This document shows positions 1 through 45,758 of a DNA stretch of 64,000 nt, piece after piece. The notes under the pieces are model-generated. The model was not told where the DNA came from. It searched no databases and was given only the letters and a program-made list of their open reading frames with translations. The DNA lies in NCBI RefSeq assembly GCF_037042905.1, contig NC_087245.1:6016001-6080000 (forward strand), written 5' to 3'. Both the position numbers and the translations under genes were made by a program. Each line of letters opens with the position of its first letter. Within the stretch, counting starts at the first letter, position 1. This DNA comes from Lytechinus pictus (lineage: Eukaryota).

Positions 1-14
1 TGCATATATATACA

Positions 15-357
15 TATATTGTGAAATAAATGAATGAAGAGAACAATGGTTTTCCCAGAGCTATCTGCCCTTTGGAAAAATTGGTGATGCCGAAAAAATG
101 TCTCCGCCGGGAATCGAACCCGGACCCCAGCTTTGAACGCCGGTGCCTTAACCACTAGACCACATAGACGGGTTAGTGGCTCGGGCGACCCCGACCCGAT
201 TGACCGTCAGATAAACAGATTTTCGACGCCACCAATTAACTTTCCTATGTCGGGTGTAGGTGAGTATTGAACAATGACAAGCCGCTATGCCTCAGCTGGA
301 TCAAAGCTATTGCTTAGATACAGTACATGTATGGGACAAATTATACAAATGTGAGAC

Positions 358-362
<5 letters not shown>
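15..362 (-). repeat. Dispersed repeat carrying a tRNA-like gene, copy 1, bounded by (TA)n
   Basis: Aligns along its length with 8430-8800; followed by (TA)n at 363-396. Ends approximate. Confidence 0.85.
99..169 (-). tRNA. tRNA-like sequence, anticodon TCA, degenerate copy
   Basis: Reverse complement GTCTATG TG GTCT AGTGGTTA AGGC A CCGGC GTTCAAA GCTGG GGT CCGGG TTCGATT CCCGG CGGAGAC A then TTTTTT; A and B boxes present; one acceptor-stem mismatch and one G-T pair. Confidence 0.6.
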
Positions 363-400
<38 letters not shown>

Positions 401-528
401 TATATATACTGTAAAGAAATTGATGAAGAGATCATTGATCTCCTCATCCATTTCTTTACAATATTTAAATAAAAGAGTTACCAAAGCTGTTGTACATGTA
501 TAACTTTACACATATGTATACATTATAT

Positions 529-579
<51 letters not shown>

Positions 580-1263
580 TCTTTTTCATAAAATATTGCT
601 TAAGTTTATAATTTGATATCTTTGTTATGTGTTATCAGATTTTGATGGAATTTACGGCATTTGCTGTGTGAACTTTGCACCTTTTTCAGATATAATCACT
701 TTCTTTATTTATTTATTTATTTATTCAGTTTTATTTAAAAACAGGGTAGTCCTTTCAGAGCCCAAAGGCCTGCTTTACAAAAGAGCCATGTAGACATAGA
801 AAGATTTACAAAATAAATGAAATACAATTAATATAAAGTAAAATACAATACACAATCAAAATTACATGACATATCAATGATATCACATTAAATGAATCAA
901 AACAAAAATTAAAAACCTAGATTAAAATCAAGACAGTTTAAAAGACGAACAAAATCATAGAAATAAAGGAAATTACTTTAAAAACGTGTGACTAAAATTA
1001 AACTAAGTAAAATTTATAAATAAGTTATAAAATTGACAATTTAAAAAACTTTGAAAATTATTGATATAAAATGGAATAAAGCAGGTAGCATACAAGGACA
1101 AATAATAGAACAAAAGGTAAAATGAATCAAACAAAAAAATACATAAAGTATCACAAATACATAAAACCAAAAAGAAAAAAAAAACGTCACGATAACATCA
1201 AAACAAAAACAAAATAAATTAACATCATGGCAAAAGACATTATAAATAGGACCAGTGCATGCG

Positions 1264-4200
1264 TTAAAACAATAAAGAGAGTGGCCTGATTTGATTTTTA
1301 AACATTTGGAGTGAAGTTGCCGTACGTATATGAGTCGGTAGATTATTATAGATATTTGGAGCGATGTAAGAAAAGATCGCTTTTTAAATTCTGTCCTAGG
1401 TTTCGGAATAAATAGAGGACTTAGGGTAGAATGACGAGTAACATAAAAGAGTGGTCGTTTACAGGCAAAAGATTCTAAATAGTGTGGGGCTAGATTATTG
1501 AGAATTTTGAATACGAAAACAGAGTAGTGGTAGTTGATGCGAGTTTCAATACTTTGCCATTGAAGATTGTTTAAAAGGAAATCCTTTGTGGTACGATAGT
1601 CTGCATTGAGGACTAATCTAGCATATCTGTTTTGCGTCCTCTGTAATTTGAGCAAATCTTTCTTTTTACACTTACCCCAAACAACCGAACAATAATCTAT
1701 ATGTGGGAGAACAAGAGCATGGTAAAGGTGCTTGAGAATGCGTCGATTCAAGTAACATTTAATCCTTCTAATGCATGAAATAGCCCGGTTGATTTTATTA
1801 GTTAGATAAAAGATGTGCGGTGTCCAACTTAGACTTTGGTCAAGGGTTACCCCTAAATATTTGATATCAGAAACATTCTCAAGGTATTCTCTTCCGTGAA
1901 AGATATTCATACTTAGATTCTTAGTTTTATGTTTCGTCCCAAAAACCATCACTTTGGTTTTCTTTGCATTGATTTCCATATTATTTATTTCAAACCATTT
2001 GCACAGTAAATCATAATGTTTTTGTAATTTTTTCTGAGTGCTTTTTGAATTATTTCCTGTACAAAACAGAGCCGTGTCGTCAGCGTAAAGTGCAATCTTG
2101 ATTTGATTACTAAATTTCAAGTTACAAATATCATTTAGAAATAAACAAAACATCAGGGGGCCCAAAATTGACCCTTGCAGCACACCTGAATAGATCTGTA
2201 AAAAATCACTCTGGACGCCTTGAAACGAGACACATTGCTGTCTATCTGTTAGGTATGATGAGAACCAGTCTAATTCGACCGATGTTATACCATGATATGG
2301 CATTTTTTATAACAATATTTCGTAAGATATTACGTCGAAGGCTTTTTTCAGATCAAGGAATATCGCACCTGTTATTAAGCCACAATCAATATTATTTAAC
2401 AGGTAGTCAGTTATTTCAATTAAACAAGTTGCGGTTGAGTGCTTGGGGCGAAAACCCGATTGGCGCTGTGACAGTAGTTTGTATTCTTGTAAATAATCGT
2501 AAAGTTGGGCATGCACTGCCTTTTCAAGTATTTTTGATAGACATGACAAAAGTGAGATCGGTCTATAATTGCCGATGTCACTTGACTCACCACTCTTCGG
2601 TACTGGGATAATCTTTGCTCTTTTGAAATCACTTGGGAAACATCCTGAGCTTAAAGATTTGTTAAATATTATTGAAAGTGGTTCAGCTATAAAAGGGGCG
2701 GCGATTTTCAATAATCTTGGATGTAAATCATCCAGACCAACAGCTTTGTTTACATCGATTTTCTTAAGTTCCTTCATTACAAATTCCGGGTCTATATTTT
2801 TAAACCTAAATTTTGATACGACTTTTGATAATGTATTCATTGAATTAAAATTTTGATTGTCGGAAGGGTTATGTCTTTTACCAACATTAACAAAAAATTC
2901 GTTGAATGACTTTGCGATTTCTTGCTTGTCAGATGTCGTGTGAGTCCCAATATTTATATTAGGGTTGACTGAAACCTTTTTCTTGGGCAACACATTTTTC
3001 AGGATTTTCCAAGAATGTTGTAATTTGTTTTGACATTTTTTTATTTTGTTGCGATAAAATTCCCTTTTCAACTTCTTGTTTAGAATAAACACTTTATTTC
3101 GGAAATACTTATATTTTCCCCAAAGGTCATTGATTTCCTGACCTGTTTTTATTGATTTCTTCAGTTTGTCAAACTTTCTTTTGTAATAATCACGGTCTCT
3201 CGATAGAGCCAGGTATTCAGTTGTAATCCAGGGAGACCCACCCAATTTCTTTCTTACTGTAATATGGGGGGCGTGTTTATCAGCTAATACCTTAAAAGCT
3301 TCATTGAATTTTCCCCAATTATAATCGACGTCCTCTTCTGACGACAATAGATCACTCCATCGAATATTAGCAAGGTCATCGACAAAGTCATCCTCGACAA
3401 AGTTTCTAAACGATCTAAATGTAAAGATTTCAGGCTTAGCTTTTGGTCTATTGTAACCGAGGGTCAAATATATTAGGGAGTGGTCACTTAGTCCGCATGA
3501 GATTGTTCCAGATCGCTTTACACTTGTTACCATTGAACTAGAAACACAAATAATATCGATCAAGGTACTGCTACAAGGAGTTATTCTTGTAGGCTCTTGT
3601 GTAAGCTGGGTTAATTGAAAGGTGGAACAGAGTTCATGCACCTTATAAAGGCTATTTTTGGTTAACATGTTGGAGTTAAAATCACCTAGAACTATGACGT
3701 TATTTGTAAAAGAAAATACTTGATCCAAAGTTGCTTCAAGGCTTTCAAAGAATGATAAAGAACAATCAGGTTTACGATATACGACACATAGGAAAAATGG
3801 AAGTCGATATCGAATTTTCAATTCGAACCACATTATTTCCAAATCGTCTTTTTCAAAATCACGTCTTCTAACATATTCTACATTATTTTTTATATAACAT
3901 CCAACTCCACCACCGTGGACATTACGATCTCTCCTTTCAAAAATGTAACCTGGAATGTCTAATACATTTGAGGTAAATGTATCGTCAACCCATGTCTCAG
4001 ACATAGTGAATAAATCGACTGAATTGTTATTCATGAAATATTCGATTTCTTCCTTTTTGTTTCGTAAACTTCTGACGTTTAGATGGGATATTGACAATCC
4101 TTTATCATAAATACAAAAATTATTATCTTCGTTATTAGACAAGTTGTCGTGTTCCGAAAATGAAACATCTACGGTATCTGGTTCGCAATCAACATAAAAA

Positions 4201-4391
4201 AAGGGCAATTCTTGAAGGATACAAATAGGACAACTCCAATTTTCAAAAAGTTCTTTTCCATCATTGTATACAGATTGGGGTACATTGGCACACGTAATGT
4301 GAACCCAATTTTTACAGTTTGTACAGAGAAGGGCCTTCTGGTTGCATTTTACTGGTTTCTTGCAACTTACACACGCATACTTAATTGTCAT
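1264..4391 (-). pseudogene. LINE ORF2: PHD finger + APE endonuclease + reverse transcriptase, disrupted
   Basis: ATG at 4391; CVSC..CTNC..HITC..CPIC; HLNVRSL, SETW, GDFN, SDH; YRPISLL, DLKKAFD, QGSILGP, YADD. In-frame TAA at 2307-2309 joins ORFs 2307..4475 and 1041..2303. A 1-nt frameshift near 1372 restores SYIAPNIYNNLP...LLF* ending at 1264. Confidence 0.92.
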
Positions 4392-4589
4392 GAAACAAAT
4401 AACATGAAATATACTATGAAACAAGAAGTTTAATAACGAAAAATGAGCGTCGTTAACCAAAATCACATAAAACAAAATAACATGAATTTAAAATAAAGAA
4501 AACAACAACATTCAACAAAGACAAAGCTATTTGACAATAAACACCACGATTTACCTCTAGCTTTGACAGTCTGTATAGAGTTCGAGTGT

Positions 4590-5405
4590 TCAGTTTACTT
4601 TGGACAGGTCCTTTTCACTGGCAATAGACACCTTTTCGCCGTTTGGTTTTTTGACAATTATTTTACCATCTTGTGTCCAGAGTTTGTAATCATTGCTTCT
4701 GAGACTTTTCTTTACTTTCCAATATAGTTTATTCCGCTTCTGTGTTAGGCTTTCATTGATATAAATATGCTTTGACTTACTCGATGACTTTCGCAGGTTG
4801 AATCTAGCCTTGTAGATGGAGTCTCTCTTCCGATAGTTCGTGAATTTTACGATGACGTCCCGATGTTGTTTGCGAGTTTTCTGTCCTTTGTTGTTTGGGC
4901 TCCCGAGTCGGTGGCATCTGTCGACGTCGCTTTCATCGATGGTTACCCCGAGGTCCTCTTTACATATGTTCACTATTTTCCTCTCCACGTCCTCGTCTTG
5001 CGTCTCGTTGATACCAGCAAAGATTAGGCAGTTTCTTCGAGAGTACTGCTCTGCTTCGTCCATGGCGTCCTCGACGACATCTACTCGTTTTTCGAGCAAC
5101 GCCATTTTGTCGTTGGCGTTGTCAATGTCAAATTTCAACGAGTCTCTCACTTCCGATCTCAGAGATTCACATATCTCATCCAGCAGCTTTGTCTTGATAG
5201 CCGAAACCAGCTTAGATATAAAATTCTCATTGGTGAGTAGTTTATCGATGGCTGCTTGGATAGCATTGGATAGTGTGGAGTCGTCGCCGTCAGTGTCGTC
5301 ATTTTGGGCAGCAGAGTTGTCAGCGGGAGACGGACGCTTGGGCTTAGGGGAGTTATCGGCCAACGATCCCCCCTTTCCTCGTCTTGGTCTATCGGGTCCA
5401 CCCAT
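4590..5405 (-). CDS. LINE ORF1p (coiled coil + RRM, L1/Transposase_22-like type)
   Basis: Intact ORF from ATG 5405; motifs EQYSRRNCLIFAGINE, DRCHRLG, VIVKF, IYINESLT, WTQDGKI are typical of this ORF1 class. Confidence 0.88.
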   Translation of the reverse strand: MGGPDRPRRGKGGSLADNSPKPKRPSPADNSAAQNDDTDGDDSTLSNAIQAAIDKLLTNENFISKLVSAIKTKLLDEICESLRSEVRDSLKFDIDNANDKMALLEKRVDVVEDAMDEAEQYSRRNCLIFAGINETQDEDVERKIVNICKEDLGVTIDESDVDRCHRLGSPNNKGQKTRKQHRDVIVKFTNYRKRDSIYKARFNLRKSSSKSKHIYINESLTQKRNKLYWKVKKSLRSNDYKLWTQDGKIIVKKPNGEKVSIASEKDLSKVN

Positions 5406-8379
5406 AATGGTCAAGATTATCTGGACAATTGTTAATTGTATGCTTGGCGGAGGCTTCGTCACACACGTCCGTTCATCCCGACGTCAGCCCGGAATACCCT
5501 TAAAATGAGATCCATTACCTTTTTAGAACTGCGTTTTCTTATTTCGGAAATTAGTTAAATAGTGAATTATACTACCTTGTAGATTTTGAAAATACCCTTT
5601 ACCAAAATGTTTGGGGATATACCCCGATCCCCCGACCCCCGTCGCTCTTGTCTAAAACTTAATTTGTTCACTCTGTGCCTTAATAGACAAACAACTATTT
5701 TGAGTGGGTTTCAGACCGATTTCCGCCATTGATTCAGAGGAATGCAATATTCCACTCTTTATTGTTTGAATATCTTTATCGTCAACAAAGTATGTCGTCT
5801 ATGTAGTTAGCAACACACCCTAACGTTGGATGTGCATATGACAACTGGAATTGAAGAAAACAAAACACTTGTCTCGCCAGCGCCCCGTTGCATAAAAGTC
5901 ACCGTTATGGTAACTTTGCCATCCAATGGTAACTATCACGGTAACGATGATCAACAGCCAATCCCTAATATTATGGATATATCATGCATTGTCATTATTT
6001 TTTCTAATACGGAAATGTACTACCTTACCACCCACTCTTCAGTCTAACCCTGTTAGTTCTCGATACCCTGATTGTCTCCGTGCATGCACGGAGAGAAGGT
6101 GCGCCAAATGGCACACATTTTTTACCGAAAGGCATACTGGTAATTGACAAGCAAACACGATATACATATTCAAAGATATTACAAGGGGCAGATCGGACAC
6201 TTCTAAAAGGCGATGTTTTGAAACGCTCGATAAATGCTCATGGGAAGGGCGCCATTAGCGTTGAGTAAAGTAACCATCGCATATCGGCACATCGGCTGTG
6301 CATAAAACATAAGGAGGAATGAGAGAGGGGATTCCGGAGAGGGCTCAAGGGCGGCGCATGGGAATAACTCCACCTTTTATTACCCATAAACCTCTGAAAT
6401 ATATTAATCTTTAATTTAAGGGAAAAATGATTTAAAAAAAATGAATGTAAAAATCGTCTATTGTGACCCTCACCATTTTATATGTTTTGTACACAACCAT
6501 ATCGCGATACGCAAAGGTAAAAAAAAAGGTCGATACTCATCGCTGTACTTGGGCGCTCTTTCTAAGCGTTCAAGGCCCAATATATAGGGCCTTGTAAGCG
6601 TTGTGAAGTGCGCATGTAATCCAAGCTATGTGGGGAAGTTACAAATTGATGCAGAGGTTCGAGCCCCGGTCACGTCTTTCGGTCCCAGACGTAAATAATC
6701 ATATCTGATTGATACACGTCTGACAAAACTCAAATACACACACATTCATTGTTTCATTGCGCGCTCTCTGTACTGTCCGATCTTCCCCTTAGTATCTTTG
6801 ATATATTGCAAAGTGATAAGGAAATTTTAAGCATTTTATTTTAAATTAAAACAACCATGTTTAGTTTCAAATCTATTTTGTTTAAAAGTTCGACATTGTT
6901 AAATAATTTTCTAAACGAGTCAAGAATAACTATTAGTAAGGACAACAAATCAGACTGTATAGGCCCGAATAATTTGTACGGGTTTGGAACATTCATTTGC
7001 ATTTTGGGGCAATAATAGTCGTATATACATTATTCCTTCTCCGATGTGTCTATTCATATGTATGCACTTTTCTATCATACCAAGGGAGCAAATCCACATT
7101 TTTGAAAAATATCAAGCTGTGGTCCATGCGTTATACCTCTGAGGTGACTAATATTACTATCCCATATAGCTCTATACGGGGAGAGTAAATTTACTCTGAC
7201 ATTCTCAGCATGGTATATCCATATAAATCAAATCTTAAAGTCAAACTTTGAGGACTGCCTCGAATTTTTCTGCATAAAGCAATATAAATTATATCTAATA
7301 TATACAATGTGTATTTTTTTTTAATTCAAGATATATTTATAGCATTTTGTTTACGTGTTTTTCTGTGTTCATATATTAAAGAACTGTTGCTGGGCTGGCG
7401 CCATGAGCGTCTTCGGACGGTTTGTGCGCTCTTACAACCAGCTGTGATATAATAGGGAAGATGGCGTGCTTCATATTCAACAAATTAGTACCTTTACATC
7501 ATAATGGTTTGTTTTAAAGAAATCGGAGTCCCATTCGACCAGAAGAGTTACAAGATCGTTTAAAACTTAAAAAAAGTCACTCAGGTAAACGCAGGGATTT
7601 TTTGGGGGGTTGGTGTAAATCATTGCATAAATTTTTACTTAATCATTTTTGGGAATGTCTTGATGATTTCATATCTTATGTACCCAAATAATTATTGATG
7701 CTGAATATTAGATGTCCATTGAAACTAATCAGAGACAAAAACCTTCACTCGGGGTTGATATTCTGGTTGCTAAATGAAAATTTCTATCAGTCATTTTGTA
7801 AAACCTTCAGGTAATTTTTATCAACACACATTTATCCATATAAAAACGATAAACATCGTGAGAAGACGGGGTATTTTTATCCATGTGACAGATCTCGGAA
7901 ATCGTATTCTCAACAAAGGGGAAGATAGCTATGATTATGCATAGGCAACAAATTCTTAAAGGCACGCATTGTATTTTTTTATCGCTTGAAGAATCATAAA
8001 AAAAATGCTATAGTCACACCACTGGAACTGACTCCAGACCGATCAAAGCTATTTCAAATGGTATATCATTGGTTAGTTTGGATCCAGTATGCGTTGGTGT
8101 GTGACTGAGGCAGGAAGTCATTTGAGGCTGTTTAACGTTCGTAGAGCACGCCATCACATTCCTATATTTATATATCATGTTTGGCTTTCATCTGCCCAAA
8201 CATGTAGGAAACTTACCGTCAAAATCTTACCACTGGTCAGGGGCGTCGATCCATTTTTCAGATTGGGGGGGGGCAAAATCATGAATCGTTCTAAAGGCGC
8301 TCGATCACACCAAACAAACTCACCCACACACACACACACACACACAGGCCTAATTATATATATATATATATATATATAT

Positions 8380-8815
8380 AAATGTGTGAAGTTATACATG
8401 TACTACAGCTTTGGCAACTCTTTTATATTTAAATATTGTGTGAAAGAAATGGATGAAGAGAACAATGGTATGCGTAGCTTAAATCAAGGTTCCCCAGAGC
8501 TATCTACCCTTTTTGGAAAAATTGGTGATGCCGAAAAAATGTCTCTGCCGGGAATCGAACCCGGGCCCCCAGCTTTGAACGCCGGTGCCTTAACCACTAG
8601 ACCACAGAGACGGGTTAGTGGCTAGGGCGACCACGATCCAATTGACCGTCAGATAGACAGATTTTCGACACCATACCAATTATAATTTCCTTTGTCGGGT
8701 GAAGGTGGGTTTTGAACAATGACAAGCCGCCATGCCTCAGTTGGATCAAAGCTATTGCTTTGATACAGTACACGTATGGGAGAAAGTATACAAATGTGTG
8801 AAGTTATACATGTAC

Positions 8816-8819
<4 letters not shown>
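8380..8819 (-). repeat. Dispersed repeat carrying a tRNA-like gene, copy 2, nested in (TA)n inside the hAT-like element
   Basis: Homologous to 15-362; identical 28-bp direct repeats at 8380-8407 and 8792-8819; (TA)n on both sides. Confidence 0.88.
8540..8611 (-). tRNA. tRNA-like gene with complete cloverleaf, anticodon TCA (opal-suppressor-like, not Sec-type)
   Basis: GTCTCTG TG GTCT AGTGGTTA AGGC A CCGGC GTTCAAA GCTGG GGGC CCGGG TTCGATT CCCGG CAGAGAC A, 72 nt, all four stems pair, T6 immediately 3'. Function unproven. Confidence 0.7.
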
Positions 8820-8847
<28 letters not shown>

Positions 8848-10459: not shown

Positions 10460-12767
10460 CAATGGCGGATCCAGGGGGGCACAGGGGGCGCACGCCCCCC
10501 CCCCCGCCTACTATTTGAGCGGCGCCTTCAAAAAAATAAAAGAAAAGTAAAAGAAAGAAAAGGCGCCGCTTAAAAAATAAAAATAAAGGAAAGAAAAGAA
10601 AAGGCGCCGCTTAAAAAAAATTTACACTGATATAATATTAGCAACAGTAAAGGAAAGACTATCCCCCAGCAAAGCACAATCATATCATCTTCCTTATCTT
10701 TTCTTTTAACTACCCTTTTCCCAACAACTTCGCCGGTTAAAAATAATCAGCAGTGCGCTGCCTGCATATAACTGGCGCCAATCAAGAATAATCAGCGCCA
10801 CCTAAATCTAAATCGGCGCCAGACAAGAATAATCAGCGCCATTTGGTTATAAATCGGCGCCAGTCAAGAAAAATTGACACTGCCAGAGTCTTAACCGGCG
10901 CCGATCAAGGATAATCAGCGCCACCTAAATCTAAATCGGCACCGGACAAGAATAATCGGCGCCATCTGGTTATAAATCGGCGGTGCCTGAGTTCTTAACC
11001 GGCGCCGATCAAGGATAATCAGCTCCACCTAACTCTAAATCGGCAACGGACAAGCAAAATCAGCACCGCTGATCAAGAATAATCAGCTCCGCCTAAATCC
11101 AAATCGGCGCCACGAAAGAACGATCAGCACCATCTGGTTATAAATCGGCGCCAGTCAAGATTAATCAGCGCCCCCAGGTTCTAAATCGGCGCCGGTAAAG
11201 AAAAATCAGCGCTGCCTGAGTCTTAACCGGCGCCGATCAAGAATAACCAGCGCCACCTAAATTTAAATAGGCGCCGGTCAAGAATAATCAGCGTCCCCTG
11301 GTTCCAATAAATAGGCGCCGGTAGAATAATGAAGAAGGGCCTATTGCCAACCAAATCTAGATCGGCGCCGGTCAAGAATGATCAGCGGCACCTGGTTATA
11401 CATTTTATTGTTGAATGGTCATAACGAATAACAAAGCTTATCGCATGCCCTTACAAAGTGGACTGGGGCGGGGCAGTTGCCCACAGATATCATGAAATCT
11501 TTAATTTCTTATTTAAAAAATCCCAGAATCATACAACAGTGTAGAGCAAATCCTTTAATTTTGATCTTATTTTCCAATGCTTTGATAAAAAAGTCAGACG
11601 GTTGCTAATACCGGGAGTGTATACTTACGCAACCAGACGTACATGTATATCCGTTAGACCTTAAACCACTAAATATAATTTTCAATGTATAAATACAGTT
11701 TGTCGATACCTTTGTTTTAACGTTTAAATGTTTACGCCACAAAATTTGATTTATTTTCATCTTCCATTACGTTAAATATTATTCATCTGATCACTCAGGA
11801 AGAAGTTAAAAACAAAGATAACGATACCTGTAAAACTAGAAAACTATTTCCAAAGCTCTGTCTTGAAGGATCTCTTTCTGAATTCAGGTCATAAGCATCA
11901 TATCCAGTTTCATCAAAGTAATTAGATAAAAATTACTCATCATTACAAATTTCATTAGATTTAGTGAAAAGCATCACAATATATATATAAATACCAATTT
12001 CTGTATGTAGGCCTATACATCATGTACATGAAAATTGAATGATAATATATAAACCTGGATTGGTGATGTATTCCAAATGATTCATGATATAGTCTCATTG
12101 TATATATATAGTAAAACAAAACTTGTATCTCAATTAATATACAAAAGTATTGGCCTCATCGCAATAAAAGGGTTGGTACACGAGATTGTGAAATCGCACA
12201 TAACATGCATAATTTGTATTACTTTTTGCTTGTTTCTTTCTTTAATAAGTTTTTCAATCTCTCTCTATGTATGTTTTAGAAATATTATATGTTTAAATTG
12301 ATATTTTCTGTTATAATGAGATATGTTTCAGTGGATTTCAGGGAATGGTCGTACGCAGCAAGGGGGAAGGGGGGCAAATTCCCGATCAGCTGTTGTGAAA
12401 ACACATTTTTCCCTCAACATTTCATGAAATCTACGAAAAATGTGCAAATGTGAGATGTACACCAAATACTTTTATTACACTTGTAAAAAAAAAGAAATCG
12501 CCCCATTGAGCAGTTCGGTCCGTTTACTCTATCGTTTTTTTTTTTCAAAAATATGTTCGAGTCTTGCCCCCCCCCCCCCCCCTTGCGTGTGGTCATGCAA
12601 AATGGCATGAATGGAAATCCTACATTTTGAAAAGAGCATTTGACAGGGTCAGACTTTACCCCTTTTTCAACATTTTCTTTTATGGCGCCGTTGAAGTGCA
12701 AAAATATGTGCGCCGCTTGGCAGTACGCCTCCCCCCCCCCTTTCGCCAAAAGCTGGATCCGCCTATG
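10460..12767. mobile_element. Non-autonomous TIR DNA element with 5-bp TSD
   Basis: TIRs CAATGGCGGATCCAG / CTGGATCCGCCTATG (13/15); ATCTG at 10455-10459 and 12768-12772; no transposase ORF. Confidence 0.8.
10740..11400. repeat. Minisatellite, ~41-bp unit (CAAGAATAATCAGCGCCACCTAAATCTAAATCGGCGCCAGW and variants)
   Basis: About 16 diverged tandem units rich in GGCGCC, inside the TIR element. Confidence 0.9.
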
Positions 12768-15194: not shown

Positions 15195-18100
15195 CTGTAA
15201 ATACATGTATATTCAACTATTAGTGCACAATTCGTAAAACATAAATCAATATACTTCTTCTTAAAAAATGTGTATATAATATCATATTCGACGACTGAAT
15301 GAATTCATTGAAATTAAACTTATCTCATGGTTTGGTTGAAACGTCACAATCAAGCAACCTAGGTTTTCAAAATAGTTATTATTTATTTATTTATTGTGTT
15401 TTATTTATCTTATACTGCAGGGTAGGAAAGTTCAGTTCTTAAAACTGCTTTACAAAGGCGCCCTGCAGTTTAAAATACATGTCAAGATAACTATGAACAA
15501 CAACAACAACAACAAACAACATCAAAAATACAAAATACAAAATATCTAACATCAGAAACAATTAATACCAAAATATAGAGTGGGAAGTGACAATTTAAAC
15601 ATACGTACAGGAGGTTTGATTAATCCACCCTTTGGACAGTCCGGGAGTGGTCGGTTCTTCATGGTGTGGGATTTAACACACGATGGGATCTGAGTCAACT
15701 TGGTGGGTATGTCAGTGTAAACATCATCATCATCTGTCCGTGATCCGCATTTGATGAGGTCTGTAGACGAATTTCGAGTGTCGTGATTATCCTTGTTGAC
15801 CGTAGCGCATTCAACCACTGAGAGCATTGCTACAGAAGTATCTTCTCCTTTAACCCTACTTTGTTGCTCGTCCTGTCTGTTGGGTTCAGGCGGATTTAGG
15901 CATACCTGTGATGAGTTGACATGTAGATATTTTTCAGAAGTAGACATGTTGGAGCTGAGTGATATATCATCGCCATAACGAGTCGCTTGTCTTTTTCTTG
16001 GAAATGTCTTGGTAAATCCCAAACATATTTTTCGACAATCCTTTGACTTGCAGTATCCGTATCTGCATAATAGTTTTAAAAAATGATTATCATATTTTCC
16101 TTTCCGTCCTGTTTATCCTTCAGAAGTTACAACTTGCATCATTATATATTTATATAAAAAGTTTAAGATTTTGAGAATTGATTGGAATTGAGCAAAAATG
16201 TTTTTAAGAAAACATTAGGTTAAAATAGTGATCATGTATGATGGTATATTTAAAAAGGCAATATATGATTCCAAAACTGTGTAAAGCCATTTCTCCCCCA
16301 ACGGTATTCCAATGTAGAAAGAATTATTTAGCATTCGAGAAATCTTAGTTTGCAGTTAAGAGATAGGAAGATGTCATTATACAGACTTAATTGGTTCAGT
16401 TGAAAGATACAATGAATAATTACATACATCACAACCCCAGCAACGATTGATGAAAGAGAAACAATGATGATAGTAATCAATGACCATGGCTCTAGAAGTG
16501 GACCTTCCCCGATGGATTCTAAGAAGGAATAAAGGAAATATCAGATCAAATTTACTTTTTGCTTAATCTTGATATAATTCATAGAGTAAGAAAACTATTG
16601 ATATCGGTGGAAATGATAAGACCACTAAATTCGATTGCGATCTACAAGTAGCTTTATACATGTTCATTCTCTACCTGAAACCAAAACGCTTAATATTTCA
16701 ATTTTGAAACAAATGATCGTAAAGAAGTATGATATCTTGAAGGCTGGAGAAAGAATAGAAAACTTACTTTCTACTGAATGGACGGTATCGGCGAGAAGTA
16801 TATGACAATCGACTAACTACACAAACGATCATAGTTGCAGTAAACACTGATTTCATGAGAAAGTATGTAAAACCAGGCTTAATTGTCAGTATATCATCGA
16901 GGATCTAGATCTGGTACAGTTACATAAACTGAACTTTGTGAAATCTTGAAATCTACGCTGAATAATGTTCAGACTGAACTTCCCCAACACAGATAAGCGC
17001 ACGTGGGACAGTGTATAATTATTGCTTTGAGCGTCGGGCCCGACGCTCTACCCGAATCCTGTGCTTATTTGCTGATTTCTCAGCAATTACACAATTTCTT
17101 CCAGAATCCTTTGGCACATGCGTTTTATTTATACAAACAGACACTTTGGTGGTCATTTCATTGGATTCTGTACGAACTCATTTTGATATCGTTACCAAAA
17201 CTAGCATTTACTTTTAATATGAAAATAAACTAGTGGTTGCAGCACATTATTAAAATGATATTGAATTATAGAAATGATAGTAGTTTCCAGGGGAAAACTT
17301 CATTAAAATGTTTCTTCACAAGTAAAATGATGCATTAGATCATCGGTTTTTTAATCATGTAAATTACGTCATGATAAACTCATATTTATGGTATATAATT
17401 TTTATAGATTTCATAAATGTGCAGTGTGTTATAACTCCTCTTCATTAATTTTTATTAATTTCATCTTACTTGAACATACAGTAATACTACCAAATTAGAC
17501 CGTCTTGTTTGCCTTCTATTACTCATGTTACAAGTAGTAACTAGTATTATTGATTTGTTTAAAAGGAGATAGAAACACCACCTTGGTACTTTCCGTTGTA
17601 AGCGATTTGAGCCTAATGGGAAAAATCAACTACAATATGATACCGTCTTCACACTGGCCACAAACACCGCTACAGTATCGGGACTGTCCCGAGACTATTA
17701 GCAGTGTTGCTTTCAGGTGCCACGAGCCTAATTACATCAGGAGGGCTAAAGATATTCGTTCGACCCAACCCGTTCGAATTTTTTCAATTTGATATTGCTG
17801 ATTGACAAAAGTGTATGAATATGATTCAAAATCTAACACTGATTCTAGAAATGGTAACTACTGAACTTCCTTTGCCCAAATTGGGAAGATATATCAATGA
17901 TTTGGAACTATTTTTTGACTGGCGGAAGAATTGGGGCTATTTTACTGTTTCAGTTGATGAATTTGATCCCATCATAGTTATCTTCATAAATGGCGATTTA
18001 TTTTTAAAATGAGCTGGCTACGATACCCTTCTCTGGTCAGATATGGAATGTCAGATATATATCCTATCCAAAGGTAGTAAACATTCGACCCTCTAATTTC

Positions 18101-21100: not shown

Positions 21101-24100
21101 ACCTCCAAGATTCCCTCATTAGCCTTCATACTGCTCTTGAGTCTTACGTTTTGTGTTCGTTCTGAATGATGAGACAGATATTTAACCTTTTAACTTCCTA
21201 ACCAAATTCTGAGAAGAAAAATATTTTCTTTTATAAACTATACATTGATACCTACTGTAAGTGGGCTTCTGGGTGCTCAACCAGAAAACAGAATCGATTG
21301 AACAGTGCAAAGGAGAATATGGAGAAAGGGTTTGCCTGTCAAAATGTTGATCTTGACCCTATTTTGGCATCAATATTGTCCAATTCTTTTTTCGAACACA
21401 TCTTTTTAAATAGGGAGGGAGTAAAATTATTATACTTATTCATCATTTTCATTATCAAAATACGTAATAAGTCCATTTGTCAAAACTTGCAAAAGTGTTC
21501 GTTTCCGAAAATCTGCTCTCGATGCAATCATGTACGTGTCTAACTTTGTATCCATTGACATTGCTGATATTGTTTAATTGCCAAACATACCGTATCTTGA
21601 TATCATGCAAGCGATGGCAGTGAGTAAGTACATCTTCGTGGAGTAGGCCAACATGATTACCATCAGCCTGATAGGTCTCAGATATCAATTTATTCCGACC
21701 AGAATTAATTTTAATCATGTTTAACTGTTAAATACCGACTCTATCCACAACGGGCAGCACAGTGGCAGAGAACTTTCTAAAGTAGGTCTACTTGTTTTAC
21801 TCATGATGGTTAAATCCCCCGGATTCGAAATGGTGATATTAATTCTGATTCTAAAATAACACAAGGAAAGCCCAAAACGTAAAGGAAGAAGGATCAGTTC
21901 ATGCTTATCTTCTACAATAATCAGTCATAACCAATAAATCATATCCAGCTCTGATAAAAAAAATCATCGAAAGTAGTGTTTTAATAAACCTATCGACATT
22001 TCACGAATGAGACTTTTCCTCTATACATATATTATGGATTTTTATTTATAGTTTTCCATTTTTATTTTTTAAAAACGACCACAAACTGGACAATGTGCAT
22101 GGTAAAGCACAAACCTGATTTATCAAAACAATGAAGTGCTAGATGGAATCCTGAACAGTCTTGATTGCCGTCTGATTGAAAAGTGAGACGAAGATACGAC
22201 CCTGTTGATAGAAATGGAGGAACATTTAGGCCTGTTCCAGAATAGTTGCGGCTATTGAAGGCTCTTACAGGATCACGGACTCCCAACACGTCATCAAATT
22301 TCTCAGTACTGAATTTTTGAAAGAGAATCGCGATCCCTTTGTTTAGCGGTGCTGTGATATTCCACATGATGTTTAAGTTGTAGCCATAATGCTGGGGATA
22401 TCCAGGAGATGTCAGATTTGAAGCTGAAGAGTCATTACAAGTTAACCTCACCATTTCTCCTGTTAACGATACAGAAATCATACAGTGTAATTTAGATAAC
22501 AGCACAATTATATAACACTCATTCAATCAGAAAACATCGACGAAAGCATATTCTTTTTTAACTGAATTGGAAACACTTCCTTAAAAAAAATGAGTCCTGT
22601 CACATTTTTCGGAATCAAATGAATTTTCAATGTGTTGCGATATTGGACAAATAAATAATAGAGAAATTGTTTGCCTTTTCTATTTAGAGGTAAATAGATC
22701 ATACACTACACAAGGCAAAAAAAACATATTTAGAAGAGTCAGTTCGGATTAATCCAAAATTATGAAAATCCAAATAATCCGAATTGGCTGACAAGGTGTT
22801 CCTTAAGTTAAAGTCCACAATGCTGGCGATGATGAAATTGATTTTGAAACGCGATGAATAATTAGTACAGTCACTGTAACAAGTTGAAATGTCTGTGAAG
22901 ACGAAGTTGATGATTTTTTTGGTAATAGTATTTTTTAAATCATTCAGTTCAAAATCATACAAGTAATAGCATATCAACAAAACACTGTTCACAGAGTCAA
23001 ATAATTATTCATAATACAAAAAACTGTACAAAAAATACAGAATATAACATTAGTTCATTTTATTTGTCTTCCAACTTTAAGTTTGAATACATGACAAACA
23101 TACAAGTGTGTATGAAACAATGAGCAGAGTACATGATAAAACATACAGGTATACATAAAACAGAGTATGCAGAAAACATTGTTTTTAAATACATTATACA
23201 GCTTAAGACAGAAAAGAAATAATTTTAAAGGAAGACGAGGAGACCTAAGTGAAGCAATGCTTGTAAATTAAGGTTCCTCATTACGAATTCAAAGAACATT
23301 GGATAAACAACACAGAAATGGCAATATGATAACTAAAGAGAGAGGCGGGAAGAGAAGAGGGACACATTTATGTACAAAAGGGACAAAAAAGGGGACATGA
23401 GGACAGAGACCAGCCAGGCCCGGGAAAGGGGGGGGGGGGTGAAACGTATTGATAATTTAGCATTAACTGATAAATAACACACGAAAAATAGGCTTTACGA
23501 ATCACTTCCATAGTTACTCAGTAAATAAGATTTCAATTTTCGTTTAAACACTGTAGAACTGACAGCATGTGTAATGTCAGGGTCAAGTGCATTCCAAAAC
23601 CTGGGTCCAGTGCAAACTAGAGTGCCCAAAGTGAACTTTGTTCTTGCACGAGATATATGGAGAGTGGAAGATTGTCTAGTATTGTAATTGTGTACTTGAC
23701 TATTTTTCTTAAATATCAGTGCCAGGGCTGAAGGGAGACTTCCTGAATCAAAATCATACATAAGAGATCCTAGCTGCATAAAGCAAATATCTTCCACTTT
23801 CAATAAGTGATTGTCATGAAATAAAACATTTGTATGAGCACAATAACTGACATTACATATACTTCTAATAGCTCTCTTCTGAACGATGAATAATTTTTGC
23901 AATTGCGTTTTAAGTGAGTTGCCCCAGGCAAGCACACCGTAGTTTAAGTAAGGAACAATTAATGAGGAATATAATATAAATAAAATTTCTTTAGGGAAAA
24001 CTGATCTCAATTGTATATAACACCGGTATTTTTTTACAACAGTTTGCAGAGATGATTTACATGAAGTGTCCAGTTCAATTTTTCATCAATAAATAACCCA

Positions 24101-26775
24101 AGAAATTTAGTTTAGGTTACACTTTCAAGACAGACATTATTAAACATTGCATTGCCAGGCAGCATTTTTAAGGAATTACTAAAAAGCATATAATTTGTCT
24201 TTTTAAAATTAAGTGATAATTTATTGGCTTGAACCCACAAGATAACATTCTTCAATTCACAATTCACTGTTTCTATCAGGGTTAGAGGATTCCTATGTGA
24301 AAAAAATAAAATACACTAGAATCATCAGCAAAGAAAATAAAGGATAATTTGTTTGATGAATTTTGAAAATCATTTATATACAGTATGAATAAGAGAGGTC
24401 CTAGAAGAGACCCCTGAGGTACACCACATGTAACAGTTTGCAAGCTGGAATTAATTCTATTCAAAGATACAAATTGTCTCCTGTCAGTGAGATAACTCCT
24501 AAACTACTCAAGGGCAACACCTCTCACTCCATAATGGGATAACTTATGTAGCAAAATTTTATGATCAACTGTATCAAAAGCCTTTGAAAAATCCAAGAAC
24601 ATACCAATTGTGCTCAAGTAATTATCCAAGGCAGTGGCAACCTTATCAACAAAGTGCAAAATGGCATGTGTAGTTGTATGCTTCTCGCGAAACCCAAATT
24701 GAAAATTCGAAAAGATATTTGACTTTTTAAAGAATTGTATGACCCTTGCATATATTTTTTGAAAAAGATGTCAACAAAGAAATTGGACGATAATTGGTCA
24801 ACAATTCAGGGTTGCCTTTCTTAAAAATTGGCACAACTTTTGCAATTTTCATGCTTCTAGGCACAATGCCATTTGACATTGTAAGATTAAAGATGTGAGT
24901 AAGAGGTGTCAAGATTCCTACAATAACATGTTTAATAAGTTCATTTTTAATATTATCACAGCCTGGGCTCTTTTTACTTTTGAGAGATCTAACCACATCA
25001 GTCAACTCTTCCTCACTTGTAGGCAAAAAAATAGATTTTCCAAAGTAGGCTCAGACAAGAAGTCAGCACAGGTTTTTTGACAGGGTGGAATAGTCGCCTG
25101 TAAATTTGGACCAATATTACAAAAATAATTGTTGAACTCTTCTACAATAACACTGTTATCATCCACAACTTGATCATTTATGATTACCTGTTTTATCTTT
25201 GAAACCTTAAGTGGCGCTTTAAAAACATTTCTGATCACTTTCCAGGTATCCTTAATATTATTAAATGTCGCTTGGAATTGAGCACAGTAATATTGCTTTT
25301 TTGCATTACGCAATGTAGCAGTTAAAGTATTTCTATATGCTGAATTTCCTATTCCCTTTCCTATACAAAAATGCTGACTTTGTTTTTTTATATTGGTAAT
25401 GCACCTTATTTTTCTTATTAATTGAGTTTAACAAAGATTTGGTAATCCACGGCATACGTGGAACTCTAAATCGACTCTTATTTGTACAATTAATCACAGG
25501 TACGCTCTCGTCATATAAAACCATTATTTTTTTCATGAAATTATCAAAGGCACTCTCTACACTTTGGTCTGAGAGTATGTCACTCCAATCAGCCGAAGTT
25601 AACGCTTCTCTGAGCCGAGCGATATTTTCAGAATTGCTTTGGCGAGTATGGGTGTTGTAAATATTTGGATCCTTATATTGTCCTAAAGCTAGTTTAGTAA
25701 AAACAGGAATGTGGTCAGATAAGTCAGAAATTACTACTCCACAAGACGGAGCTGGTTGCGAATTACTAAAAATATTATCAATAAGTGTGGAAGATGTATC
25801 AGTCACTCTGGTAGGCTTTGTGATTAAGGGTAACAATGAAAAAGACATTAACAGATTCAAGAAGTCATCAACGTGAACATTATCACTGCAGTGTAATAGA
25901 TTTATGTAAAAATCCCCCATCAAAAATAATGATTGATGAGAAAGCAAAGCTTTTTCCAATATATTTTGCATGTCATCTATAAAACTTGTGAAATTACCAT
26001 GGGGATGGTCTGTAGATTTCTCCAAGAACAACATTTCTTTTACCAGGAAGCAAAATTTCTATAAATACAGCTTCCAAATGATCGGTCATTAAATTAAGAT
26101 CATGACAAACCTGATAATCTAACTGAGAAGGGACATATATTGCAACACCACCACCTCTTTTATTTTTCCTATTATTACAAATTATATCATAACCAAGTCT
26201 CAGAGACGCCAATAGGGACAAGCCCTGGGTTGATATTACTACTGAATGCTAATACATTATCAAAGTTCTTACACAAGCTGCGAATATTCATATGGAGAGT
26301 TAGGTCAGTGCTCATTCTGGTATTACAAACTAATTCAAAAGACTGTTTTTCTGTGCAATAGTTACAATCAGGGACAGCATTATGCATGTTACCATTTATA
26401 CTACAGTGATTATCTTCAACAAAATTCAAATCATCTAGAACAAAGTAAATACTTAGTCTGAAGAAAAATTTAAAAATATACAGATATAACAAAAAGAATT
26501 TATAGCGACGCAATTGAACTGAATGAGTATTAATGATAAACAGTCGATTTCAGCAATCCATGGGTTGACAAAATGTTCTTTAGAACAGGATGATGATCTA
26601 GATGAGAACTGAGAATTCCTCAAAATAACTGCAAACAGTTCATTGATGGTGTGCAAACATTTCCACAGAAGTTAATGTTGTATTGCAGGTGGAGATAAAC
26701 TATGCTCTGACATGAAGTCTAGCCTGAAACTCAGAGTTCTGATCTGATGATGATCCTTGAGGAAACTGCCAGCTT

Positions 26776-29835: not shown

Positions 29836-29958
29836 GGCGAGATAGCTCAGTCGGTAGAGCTGGTGACCTGGGTTCGATTCCCACTTGGTGTGCTAGTGCC
29901 CTTATGTGAGGATTGCATCTTCATTACCAGGTCCCTCGTAGAGGACCTTAATCCGTCG
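29836..29958 (+). mobile_element. tRNA-derived SINE fragment
   Basis: TAGCTCAGTCGG A box and GGTTCGATTCC B box with the anticodon arm missing, followed by a non-tRNA body. Confidence 0.65.
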
Positions 29959-37581: not shown

Positions 37582-37619
<38 letters not shown>

Positions 37620-37622
<3 letters not shown>

Positions 37623-38623
37623 AGCCGAACCGACTTTCTTTCCTGACGAGCTGGTTCGTTTCGGCTGCAATATACAACCAGTTGATGTAAAGTCCGTCTT
37701 TCTTCACTTCTGACTCTTTACTCCTTCACAATATCTTATATCATATCTCGTGGAACCGCACAACCATGTTGAAGACCGAATACCCAGCATTCAGTATTTC
37801 CGTAATTTCAGTATCTTGGTAAGAACTTTCAAGCATCCTCACTCATCTCGGAATCTCGGTAAGATCAGTAATTCCCGTCTATTCTCTCGACTCAGTACTT
37901 TCCGTATCTTCTCTCGAGTCAGTATTTTCAGTATCTCAGGAAAGTCGGTATTTTCCGTACTTCAGTAAAGTCAGTATTTTCCGTACTTCGGTAAAGTCAG
38001 TATTTTCCGTACTTCTCACTTTTTCCAGTAAGTACTTCCAACACTTTCGTGCTTCTGCTTTTCAGACCATGCATTCTGTAGCTCCGTACTCAATATAATG
38101 ACAGGCATGAAAACGAAGTATTTCTTTCTTCAAACTTTACTAGAATACATGCTTACCCTGGCGCAGCAGGATCAAACAGGACTTGAGCAGAGTTTCAGGC
38201 AGAAATTACTACTTGTAGGCCTAATAGCCTGGTTTGTGATCGAGCATAAAGAAGACCTATATTGATCTAGCTCATCGATTGAGGAGGGAGCTTGTCAGGC
38301 CATACAATTTTATCACTATTTAAAAATAGTTAAAGTCATAGAATAAATCTTTTCAGTAAGACAATGGTGATTGTCACTTATTTTGTGTATCCAAACAGTG
38401 TGAAATTATTAAACATAAAGAGCTAAAACAATCATACAGTTGTAAACTTCGATACTTCTCAGCAAAAAGGCATAATTACATTTTTACAGAAAATCACCAC
38501 ATAATCGATTACAAGCGATTACTGAATTTCGCTATACAACTATAAATATGGGTTAAAAATTATTCTAGTCTTTGTCGTTCCAAAACAACACTGATAATTA
38601 AATAAACCTTTCATTTCGTTACA
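37620..38623 (-). repeat. 3' LTR
   Basis: TGTAGCC...CGTTACA; 3 substitutions versus 45759-46762 by manual comparison; three ~26-bp tandem units at 37941-38015. Confidence 0.97.
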
Positions 38624-38638
38624 CAACTCCCTCCTTCG
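38624..38638 (-). other. Polypurine tract
   Basis: GAAGGAGGGAG on minus, 3 nt from the 3' LTR. Confidence 0.8.
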
Positions 38639-39021
38639 AAAAGCTCGGTCCCCGAGCTGTCCAATTTCCTAGCAAAGAAACACTTGCAAATTCAGTTTCT
38701 TTACATTTTGTAACAATTCCATAAGAAATTATCATGTTTAATATGAGCAAGATAACCACTCCGCATTTTCTAATTTCAAACTTCCTATGGATATAACATT
38801 CGAGATGATTTTTTTTTCCTTCCATCTGAGTTTGTAAACAATATTTCTAAAGATGAACTAAACTACATACAACTTCTATGTACACAAACGTTAACATCAT
38901 CATACATTAAAAGGCTACAACAAACGATGCAGAATTTTCTTCTCAAGAGTCCTTTTCCGTTTTGTTTAATTCTGCATTTTATGCAAGAGTCTTTTGAGAG
39001 TCATTTTCAGTTTATATAGAA

Positions 39022-39768
39022 TTATGGTTCATCCGGCACTCTTTTGATTTCTTCTGTGAAAATTTCAACGAGCTCTCCTTGTTTGGTGATATATCTTTCA
39101 GTTTTACGTGTAAGGATCACATCTCTGGGTATTTTGATGGATGATGTGGTATACTCCAAAACCGATCCCCCATCATGTCCAGCTTCCCTCAGCTTAGCTG
39201 TCAGATTCCTGACGCGCTTCCGGAGTTCTCCGTCTTCCTCTGTCTGGCAACTGGCGTCGCAGCACCTTGAAGGAGTCTTCTCTGCAGATCTAAATCTTTG
39301 GTGAGATTTCCCTCGGTCGTTCCGATGAGAAGATTGAGGTGTATTAGATGCGGGTGACCGAGAGCGGCTTCTGCTTCTTCGTCGAATGACACTTCTTACA
39401 GACCTTTCCGGACTTCTTGATGACCTAGGTGCTGAGTGGGAATATATTCCGCTATCCCTAGGAGATCTCGGGCTCCGGTGTCGGAATGGTGACCTGTCTA
39501 AACGGGACCTAGATTCCGGAGTGTGAACTGGAGTTTTTCCATACTTTCTGGTTGGGACTGGCTCTGCATGGGTCGCTTCATGTTTTTCCAAGTCGCCCTT
39601 CCTTCCACATCTGTAATCGCATTTGGTGCATCTGAACCTTTTCACATGACATTCCCGGTGATGGCGATTAAGCTGTGCCAGTTTCTCAAACGTTTTGCTG
39701 CATTCCCCACAGGAAAATTCATTGTGTGATACTTTGCTGGAAATGCTGATCTCGTCGTCACTCACCAT
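39022..39768 (-). CDS. Gypsy ORF3: two C2H2 zinc fingers + RS-rich region + short coiled coil, 248 aa
   Basis: Open from ATG 39768; FSCGECSKTF..L..H....H and FRCTKC...L..H...H; RSPRSP, RRRSRSRSRSP; lies between the pol stop and the PPT. Confidence 0.85.
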   Translation of the reverse strand: MVSDDEISISSKVSHNEFSCGECSKTFEKLAQLNRHHRECHVKRFRCTKCDYRCGRKGDLEKHEATHAEPVPTRKYGKTPVHTPESRSRLDRSPFRHRSPRSPRDSGIYSHSAPRSSRSPERSVRSVIRRRSRSRSRSPASNTPQSSHRNDRGKSHQRFRSAEKTPSRCCDASCQTEEDGELRKRVRNLTAKLREAGHDGGSVLEYTTSSIKIPRDVILTRKTERYITKQGELVEIFTEEIKRVPDEP

Positions 39769-39968
39769 CTTCTGCAATAAAAATTGGAGAAGAGCATAAA
39801 ATTGGTCATAATTCTGGGCCCGAAATTCGATTTAATTTGTAGCGTGAAACAAAACAGCTGAATTTCATATTCTTCATCTTATTTTACATCTAAACGACAG
39901 AGTGCATGGTCAAAGCAGAAATACGTTTGTTGTTGGTGAATAATCAATCAACTGTGGTCGTTGTAAGT

Positions 39969-42900: not shown

Positions 42901-43437
42901 TTGATGACTCTATGTTGTTGGGTTGTGTTGAGAATCCGTACAGGGAGGATCTTTTCCTCGGCGCTTACAACAGCTCGTGCAACCATCAAACCTTTACCGA
43001 GTAATTCCGTACCATCTCGCGGTCCTTCCAGTAAAGCCGAACCACTAAGGAACTGAGTGTTCCTAGCTTCGCCTGGTAGAATGACTTCACAGCCGGCCGG
43101 AATAGTACTTGTTTGCTGTGCAACAATTCTACAGCAAAATGAATTCCCTTCGTGATCTTGGCATGCTATGGTTCCCTTCGGAGTTCTCAACTCCAACATT
43201 CTGAGATCTAGTACCACATTCATCTGGATGAGTAAGTCCAGTCCAATGATTCCTTGATTCTTCAGCGCAGCTACTATGACTTCGGAGGCCGCCGCCATAC
43301 CTCCAATTTCTAAGACGATCGATGCTCTCCCCATTGTTTCTAGCGGTGAACCGTCTGCCTGGTAAACCATGTCTGTAATTCTACGAAGAGGAGGTCTCCT
43401 TGACTCAATGATGTTGCCGTATACCTCGTTTGATACT
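39969..43437 (-). pseudogene. pol: Gypsy pol (rest of protease, RT, RNase H, integrase) with one premature stop
   Basis: RFCVDYRQLN, LDLASGYWQ, MPFGL, YLDD; DTDAS, TDH; HHCC, LDILGP, SDQG, ERFNRT, GPF. In-frame TAG at 41784-41786. Confidence 0.95.
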
Positions 43438-44270
43438 CATATCGAAAACTTGCATACAGTGTACCGGACATGTAAAAACATAGCAGACGACGTTTGCAGA
43501 CCTCGCGATCATCGTATGACTAGTGGTGTAGAATGTTCCATTGTGGCTTTATGGGGGAGATAGCATTACAGAGGGATAAAATGTATACACAAATAATGTT
43601 TCAGCGTTGATTCGCAATATTTTGTGTCAATTTCATAAATTATCGTTGTTTGAACGTTTAAAACATCATTATGAAGTGAAAGGATTAAGCAAAACTTTAT
43701 TTTCAGACTCACCTATACAGTGGTAAGCTAGGATGCACCCCTCGTATACATAATGGACCCGTCACGAGTGTAGGTTTGCTCTTCGGATATCACTATCACA
43801 AAGAAAATCTCCTCTGATTTGATGATAAAAGTGCACTATTTCCTTATTAACCAATCTCCATGGTTCTTTCATGAGTATTTGCCTTACAATCTGCCCTTTA
43901 TTATAATCTGGGCGGAAATTCTTGATACCATCATCCGCCGATGTGACGACGGATATAATCCTACCGGGTACTATAAAAATGCCCCCCAAACCCATTATCC
44001 CAATACATATTCCTGACTATGGATGGTTTTGAGTGGTTTTAATGTAATAAAGTGCCATATTTCCCACCAGTTGAATTACAAAAAAATTATAATCATCTGA
44101 TAGAAGAAGTTGTTAACATTCATTTCAGGGGGGCGGAAATTCTATATGAATCAACGCTTGTCCTTGATACACATTTGTTTGTGAAAAAAGGGTATGATGC
44201 AAGGAAATTCTGCGTGTTATAAGTGTGCGCGCGTGCAGCGAGGACCTTCTGTCCGCTAGTTTTCCATATG
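43438..44270. mobile_element. ~833-bp TIR insertion interrupting the Gypsy protease
   Basis: TIR CATATCGAAAACTTGC / GCTAGTTTTCCATATG (14/16); splits DTGSSHT from VSNEVYG. Confidence 0.85.
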
Positions 44271-45717: not shown

Positions 45718-45738
45718 TTCTGAACTTCTACACCAACT

Positions 45739-45756
45739 ATCCCACTTCTGACACCA
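45739..45756 (-). other. Primer-binding site, tRNA-Leu type
   Basis: TGGTGTCAGAAGTGGGAT, 2 nt from the 5' LTR; complementary to the metazoan tRNA-Leu 3' end as I recall it. Confidence 0.85.
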
Positions 45757-45758
45757 CG

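Follow-up and report, generated by a model that had tools for sequence, protein, structure and literature searches.

The repeat described here is probably a non-autonomous, non-coding passenger, ribozyme-free and retrozyme-like, that relies on a Penelope-like element (PLE) to copy it in trans. It lies in a stretch of 64,000 nucleotides of Lytechinus pictus DNA (contig NC_087245.1), which we refer to as the window. An earlier note on this DNA had reported a tRNA cloverleaf and had taken it to be repeat-borne. This is the case: the tRNA occupies the middle of a unit of 412 bp, and the two copies in the window (named here after the positions of their tRNAs, 8540 and 99) are 85% identical over ~420 bp. 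The antisense leader, the head-to-tail organisation and the head-to-head fragment at ~400-524 are absent from that note. All coordinates are collected in Table 1.

Table 1. Features of the repeat and its flanks in the window.
Feature	Position	Strand	Basis or remark
tRNA cloverleaf, 72 nt, short variable loop, G32, A73	8540..8611	-	ARAGORN, Rfam, inspection
TCA anticodon of the cloverleaf	8576..8578	-	other letters <5% in 4/4 runs examined
T6 Pol III terminator-like run	8534..8539	-	sequence
Antisense leader, core of the predicted rod	8612..8692	-	fold and arm alignment
One repeat copy, ~1.07 units of the 412-bp unit	8380..8819	-	RNA sense presumed to be that of the tRNA strand
33-nt terminal direct repeat, copy 1 (partial tandem, tail-like)	8375..8407	.	
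33-nt terminal direct repeat, copy 2	8787..8819	.	412 bp from copy 1
(TA)n tract, left flank of the 8540 copy	8355..8380	.	
(TA)n tract, right flank of the 8540 copy	8822..8845	.	
Hairpin, 12 bp, with 28-nt A/C/U-rich loop at 8805-8778	8766..8817	-	
Second, more diverged repeat copy (tRNA 99-169)	5..362	-	adjoins (TA)n 364-397
Two truncated 3'-part fragments, head-to-head joint at ~435	400..524	.	flanked by (TA)n

Read on the minus strand from 8611 to 8540, the tRNA has a 7/7 acceptor stem, a 5/5 T stem, a 4-bp D stem and a 5-bp anticodon stem (the latter two with one G·U pair each), a 4-nt variable loop, discriminator A and the anticodon loop GT-TCA-AA. With this geometry and 60.9 bits against Rfam model RF00005 (E 9.8e-11, gathering score 29), the complete cloverleaf with TCA anticodon and T6 run that the earlier note had described is confirmed. 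A second T run, T5, stands further downstream at 8521-8517 on the minus strand. The sister tRNA at 99-169 does share the anticodon arm and the T6, as had been claimed, but it has one mismatch in the acceptor stem, a variable loop one base shorter and a score of 47.6 bits. ARAGORN makes these two tRNA calls and no others in the window; it names both SeC(tca), a label that apparently derives from the anticodon. Counts of SeC and suppressor tRNAs in sea urchin annotations may consist mostly of this 412-bp repeat. A tRNA-Sec identity, against which the note had already argued, is rejected since length, fold, variable arm and discriminator all differ: tRNA-Sec measures 90-101 nt and has a long variable arm and G73 according to the excerpts of PMC5330540 used here, whereas the repeat tRNA has 72 nt, a 7/5 fold, a 4-nt variable loop and A73, so that the UCA anticodon is the only common feature. 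The mascRNA model was likewise rejected, at 28.9 bits against a gathering score of 42.5. Elsewhere in the window, a decayed tRNA-like or B-box-like piece at 29840-29900 contains a 25-nt match to the T arm of the repeat and receives no ARAGORN or Rfam call.

An indication of how the repeat spreads comes from the way in which its copies are inserted. (TA)n flanks the 8540 copy on both sides and the 99 copy on its visible side; all three insertions in the window are in contact with a TA tract, and five of the eight window TA tracts of at least 16 bp are involved. The ends of the copies vary, and the TA tracts around them would mask any target duplication. In the head-to-head pair, the long arm runs across the unit junction. 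We took outward-facing ends as 3' ends, as in PLE insertions, which would give the element RNA the sense of the tRNA. Four 3' ends were mapped, two of them in the 28-nt loop of the hairpin and two near 8430, which gives two classes ~50-60 nt apart (based on only these four ends) beside a terminal duplication of 33 nt.

This pattern of TA tracts, head-to-tail units, a 33-nt duplication and head-to-head fragments matches that of Penelope-like insertions. PLEs form partial tandems and inverted truncated copies, carry an optional tail of 30-40 bp bounded by two RT start sites and target (TA)n, and the Naiad elements among them have no canonical hammerhead (PMC8557442, in the part drawn on here). 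In the repeat we find partial tandem and head-to-tail copies, (TA)n sites and, in one case, a head-to-head inverted truncated copy. The insertions of the Chlamys MRC1-type and Naiad PLEs treated in that part of PMC8557442 share with it the partial tandems, the multicopy head-to-tail arrangement, the inverted truncated copies, (TA)n and the absence of a canonical hammerhead. They differ in that the repeat alone carries a whole tRNA gene with terminator and antisense leader; the same part of the paper names tRNA only in connection with Sec decoding. Within a transcript of several copies, PLE reverse transcription has its internal start in an AC-rich stem loop (PMC11167929), and two of the four 3' ends of the repeat lie in an A/C/U-rich stem-loop. 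Against the PLE reading stands the distance between the 3'-end classes, since 50-60 nt exceeds a tail of 30-40 nt. No autonomous PLE was found among the 10 of 32 window ORFs that were run against Pfam. As judged by analogy, the repeat works most like a non-autonomous PLE derivative, and its membership of the PLEs awaits a partner element.

The family was followed in public sequencing runs. Parts of the repeat are present in 20 of the 24 runs listed, from 11 studies and with five organism labels; the remaining runs, X21-X24, contain next to no words of it. Four of the 24 (X3, X9, X13 and X14, with four organism labels) were examined in detail as assembled contigs. In X3, 9,050 contigs fit the repeat, and the summed depth over the tRNA amounts to ~7-9 x 10^5, compared with 32-46 for the long single contigs listed, a ratio that is not a copy number. 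These figures indicate that the repeat family is very abundant. Contig joints in X3 that lead from 8798/8799 to 8387 place the units head-to-tail, and a loose end in X13 continues into the start of the unit. The copies are thus unbroken across both ends of the tRNA and extend over more than one unit, from which we infer that the template is multimeric or circular and is not a Pol III product ending at the T6. The contigs of X9 span the whole unit as well; this run is an RNA run only by guess and has no bearing on expression or on a mature tRNA.

Although the leader is made of the same material as the tRNA, being an imperfect inverted copy of the D arm, the T arm, the 3' acceptor strand, the T run and the trailer, it is without an anticodon arm. 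Its similarity to the arms lies above 2,000/2,000 shuffles. The predicted fold of the 412-nt unit has −130.2 kcal/mol (z −5.8), a stability that none of 100 shuffles attained, with z −6.2 when the flanks alone are shuffled and the tRNA is kept and z −5.2 when the unit is folded as a circle. The predicted structure is a rod, in which the anticodon hairpin has a probability of 0.97 and the acceptor, D and T stems have probabilities below 0.05; forcing the cloverleaf upon the unit RNA is predicted to cost ~17 kcal/mol. The length of the leader matters. A leader of at most 10 nt leaves the cloverleaf no more than 0.8 kcal/mol short of the optimum, and with at least 20 nt the alternative is favoured by 6.5-13 kcal/mol. 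In this model the cloverleaf remains accessible to a short Pol III product; for the isolated 72-mer, the minimum free energy structure is not the cloverleaf (z −2.0), which lies at most 0.8 kcal/mol above it. The second copy, which is not independent of the first, has the same predicted fold (z −2.8). Control windows taken at 3-kb steps reached z −6.5 in one case out of 20 (217 nt), probably another inverted repeat.

A decayed DNA palindrome would also fold in this manner, and the rod could then be without a role. The repeat would in that case be a DNA-level foldback, a MITE or a dispersed satellite unit that spreads by DNA-based means, its palindrome being a neutral relic of an inverted duplication. 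The unit does match its own reverse complement (E 3e-4), the opposite strand also folds well (z −4.2), and covariation in the rod core has no support, given that of 17 X3 variants five keep a pair, six break one and six are unpaired (depth-weighted). Polymerase slippage can delete a hairpin exactly, which also counts for this reading. We nevertheless consider it unlikely, because terminal inverted repeats other than the TA tracts are missing, the ends differ among the copies, and PLE insertions would account for both the head-to-tail runs and the truncated head-to-head pairs. In addition, the tRNA strand folds with about double the significance of the opposite strand, with core z values of −6.3 versus −3.2 in the 8540 copy and −4.1 versus −1.9 in the second copy.

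The tests of a role as RNA, by strand, by mismatch and by majority letter, were chosen after the fold had been seen, and they give a divided picture. The ratio of G·U to A·C mismatches is 6:0 (8540 copy) and 9:1 (second copy) in the outer arm, and 1:2 in the inner arm of both copies, where there is no excess of G·U. Automatic alignment of the whole arms yielded 4:6 for the 8540 copy and 10:3 for the second copy; the 4:6 alignment had the anticodon arm mis-set, and a split alignment of this copy gives 7:2 overall. At 8471, 8633, 8640 and 8741, about 80% or more of the X3 depth carries a letter other than that of the window, and each of these letters stabilises the predicted fold by 2.1-4.5 kcal/mol; 10% of random changes (n=220) stabilise it by at least 2 kcal/mol. 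Of the three remaining X3 majority letters, the one at 8672 destabilises the fold by 1.9 kcal/mol and those at 8761 and 8425 are about neutral.

Turning to the tRNA itself, TCA is the majority anticodon in 4/4 runs, with no alternative letter reaching 5% at 8576-8578, so the majority anticodon of the family is that of the window copy. A 120-nt contig of X13 covers the tRNA without other letters, a 173-nt contig of X14 has two changes, both outside the tRNA, and the tRNA carries five changes in a single variant contig of X9. Whether the tRNA is better conserved than its flanks is less clear. Among the X3 rows listed, sites with 5-95% variant number 0/72 in the tRNA versus 22/359 in the flanks (Fisher p=0.034; p=0.011 without the edges), which agrees with the expectation of fewer high-frequency variants in the tRNA. 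On the other hand, p is 0.13 in a longest-gap test on the X3 variable sites, and a comparison of the two window copies shows differences at 3/71 tRNA sites versus 25/272 others (p=0.23). The contrast between tRNA and flank is therefore weak. Any X3 variant of at least 5% beyond those listed probably lies outside the tRNA, since a 5% variant in the tRNA would exceed the depth of the rows listed. Changes at low frequency (0.06-0.5% of the depth) are as common in the tRNA as in comparable flank rows listed in X3. Together with the modest signal at high frequency, this points to constraint on source copies, or to youth, rather than to protection of each copy. A perfect 7/7 acceptor stem is needless for a promoter or for the rod and is unexplained except by youth.

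The tRNA might be a Pol III promoter and nothing else, in a SINE-like or Helenus/TRIMp3-like element whose transposition RNA arises by read-through into the next unit. Sequences resembling the A box and the B box are intact in the 8540 tRNA. In addition, the 30 nt just ahead of the tRNA account for 8 of the 22 X3 variable sites (p=1e-4), a situation similar to the variable 5' flank seen at transcribed tRNA genes (PMC6130373, in the part considered); CpG decay or the palindrome are alternative causes. Tandem T residues directly after a head also occur elsewhere, as an unrelated SINE family from metagenomes has T5 in this place. We regard the promoter-only explanation as quite improbable, because ~200 nt upstream of the tRNA are common to the copies, T6 and T5 follow downstream of it, no pair of LTRs containing the tRNA exists, and the entire cloverleaf has been kept, whereas Helenus keeps mainly the boxes, judging from the portion of PMC10886601 used. 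tRNA-derived SINEs (SINE2) have in common with the repeat the internal promoter boxes derived from a tRNA and a high copy number; their head, however, is 5'-terminal, while the tRNA of the repeat is complete, stands mid-unit behind the shared upstream sequence and is followed immediately by T6. The doubt that the earlier note had cast on a SINE head was thus justified, and membership tests failed for SINEs (no 5' head, internal T6/T5) as for retrozymes (no hammerhead). The resemblance to Helenus/TRIMp3 is that these are also mobile, contain an internal tRNA and inflate predicted tRNA counts, including calls with suppressor anticodons. They possess two LTRs, each with a tRNA (again from part of PMC10886601); the repeat has a 33-nt terminal repeat without a tRNA and an intact cloverleaf. 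Helenus/TRIMp3 elements are further marked by fixed termini with a target duplication of 4-5 bp, a PBS and a PPT, and the ends of the repeat vary among its copies.

Beyond the sequencing runs, the family was searched for by means of its motifs. Viral contigs yielded 0 matches to the D-arm motif, 0 to the trailer motif and one match to the anticodon-arm motif, without a tRNA. In prokaryote genomes there were three matches to the trailer motif, none with a tRNA, which we took as chance. Of at least 120 loci with the D-arm motif in metagenome contigs, none matched the flanks of the unit at E 1e-3 among the matches listed. These loci were rejected as relatives, being unrelated SINE-like families: three group profiles match the window over the tRNA only, one of them with ~14 nt in addition. 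The largest contribution, 76 of the 122 motif matches listed, comes from the abundant L010 family. Its members contain the 20-nt D-arm motif, and their head is followed at once by a comparable T run and comparable bases, with no similarity beyond.

To place the tRNA among tRNAs in general, it was compared with 50 distinct tRNAs of viral contigs that had been retrieved by D-arm and T-arm motifs. Without gaps, Gly(TCC) L147 and Glu(TTC) L139 come closest, with 52/72 identical positions each. From position 30 through the T arm, L147 is identical at 32 of 35 positions, the differences being position 32, position 36 and one base of the variable loop; a single change from TCC is therefore the simplest origin of TCA. 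Relative to both viral tRNAs, the repeat tRNA shows C32>G and C36>A, and its acceptor stem is unlike theirs. The earlier note had likened the D and T arms to tRNA-Glu; over the whole tRNA Gly(TCC) matches equally well, and the parent appears at least as likely to be Gly(TCC) as Glu. This call is tentative, as the tRNAs compared are viral and motif-chosen.

The same comparison bears on decoding. Position 32 is C or T in 50/50 viral tRNAs and G in 0/50, so the suspicion that G32 is atypical was well founded. The repeat tRNA lacks the Gly determinants C2-G71, G3-C70 and C36. TrpRS could be served by G1-C72 and by A73, the main determinant of the human enzyme, but the C34 found in the Trp anticodon is missing; these determinant sets, taken from part of PMC9976931, come from other species. 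Any short Pol III transcript would probably be uncharged or a poor decoder, and decoding of UGA by the repeat tRNA is very unlikely.

A functional tRNA that suppresses opal stops or reads UGA as sense, whose number the repeat has raised and which is retained through selection acting on the host or on an element containing in-frame UGA codons, would agree with the complete cloverleaf, the terminator, the TCA majority in 4/4 runs with four organism labels, the lack of X3 sites of at least 5% within the tRNA among the rows listed, and A73. Some Naiad PLEs do have an in-frame UGA, though it is read as Sec via SECIS (PMC8557442, same part). To meet a highly amplified opal suppressor in an animal would be a great surprise, and the evidence points away from it: G32, the lost Gly elements, the missing Trp C34, the abundance of the family and the predicted masking of the cloverleaf in the long RNA all argue against the working suppressor that the earlier note had proposed. 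A very abundant active suppressor should moreover harm its host, single copies look unprotected to judge from the low-frequency changes in X3, and the 99 copy in the window is already damaged. We thus hold this explanation to be highly improbable; of the two options in the note, a tRNA mimic is the closer one. A further stop codon in the window is found in a long NWD1-like NACHT/WD40 coding stretch at 53103-55301 (+), which is interrupted in frame by a TAA at 54198-54200 (either a premature stop, or an allele, or an error in the sequence). As this stop is a TAA, it has no bearing on UGA decoding.

The passenger reading can be spelled out as follows. The first step would have been the capture of a tRNA gene along with its terminator; this gene was probably a Gly(TCC) one that bears the changes C36>A and C32>G. 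An inverted duplication would then have given rise to the antisense leader. The template would be an RNA of tRNA sense, longer than the unit or circular, that results from read-through of the terminator. In this RNA the leader would pair with the tRNA into the rod, hiding the cloverleaf and exposing only the anticodon hairpin. The rod may plausibly shield the template from RNase P and RNase Z, an argument from cloverleaf masking that draws on the enzymology of these two nucleases. A PLE reverse transcriptase would then start at A/T-rich or AC-rich loop sites and insert into (TA)n. The TCA anticodon would be an inherited change carried by the source copies.

Animal retrozymes are the other known group of small self-paired repeats. 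They consist of 150-450-bp tandem units whose RNA pairs with itself and is probably circularised by tRNA ligase (PMC7229834, in part), and they have been proposed to be non-autonomous PLE derivatives (10.64898/2026.07.22.740005, in part). According to these partial sources, the animal non-LTR retrozymes resemble the repeat in having a non-coding 150-450-bp unit (here 412 bp), tandem or monomeric, a self-paired predicted RNA and a proposed dependence on PLEs. The difference is that they have a type I hammerhead in each unit, for which the repeat has the tRNA module instead: no exact CTGANGA core was found on either strand, and no hammerhead occurs among 19 Rfam matches up to E 10. Abundant circular RNA is a further mark of these retrozymes. 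One may ask if the tRNA module plays the role of the hammerhead, in a ribozyme-free retrozyme with RtcB-closed 412-nt circles, PLE copying into TA microsatellites and a two-state switch under selection. Folded as a rod, the multimeric transcript would present a single anticodon hairpin in each unit. The loop of this hairpin would be cut by a nuclease of the host, either a tRNA-splicing or an anticodon nuclease, and the tRNA ligase RtcB would close the circles; the same DNA would also give rise to a short Pol III RNA, a cloverleaf whose anticodon reads UGA, the switch being selected in source copies. This more elaborate scheme seems to us doubtful.

If the passenger reading is true, a tRNA-bearing, hammerhead-free PLE passenger is a combination new to the literature searched. 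Neither such a passenger nor this family was found in that literature; Repbase, Dfam, GtRNAdb and the supplements of papers were outside the scope of the search. The repeat would then offer a small and very abundant model for the processing of hammerhead-less PLE templates and for the RNA features that PLE reverse transcriptases recognise.

The window contains several other elements. An LTR retrotransposon at 37620-46762, with 1004-bp LTRs that are 99.7% identical, adjoins a TA tract at 37589-37618, and a stop at ~41784 splits its pol. A LINE at 1041-5483 (-) has ORF1, a PHD finger, an AP endonuclease and an RT, the RT being split over two ORFs; other LINE fragments lie at ~23500-26500 and 59300-61800. 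Imperfect short-period tandem repeats occupy 10731-11393, and a 235-bp dispersed repeat is present in two copies (15373-15607 and 56775-57009) that are 97% identical. Finally, the window encodes a single-exon GPCR, 83% of whose length matches a Lytechinus pictus protein at 100% identity.
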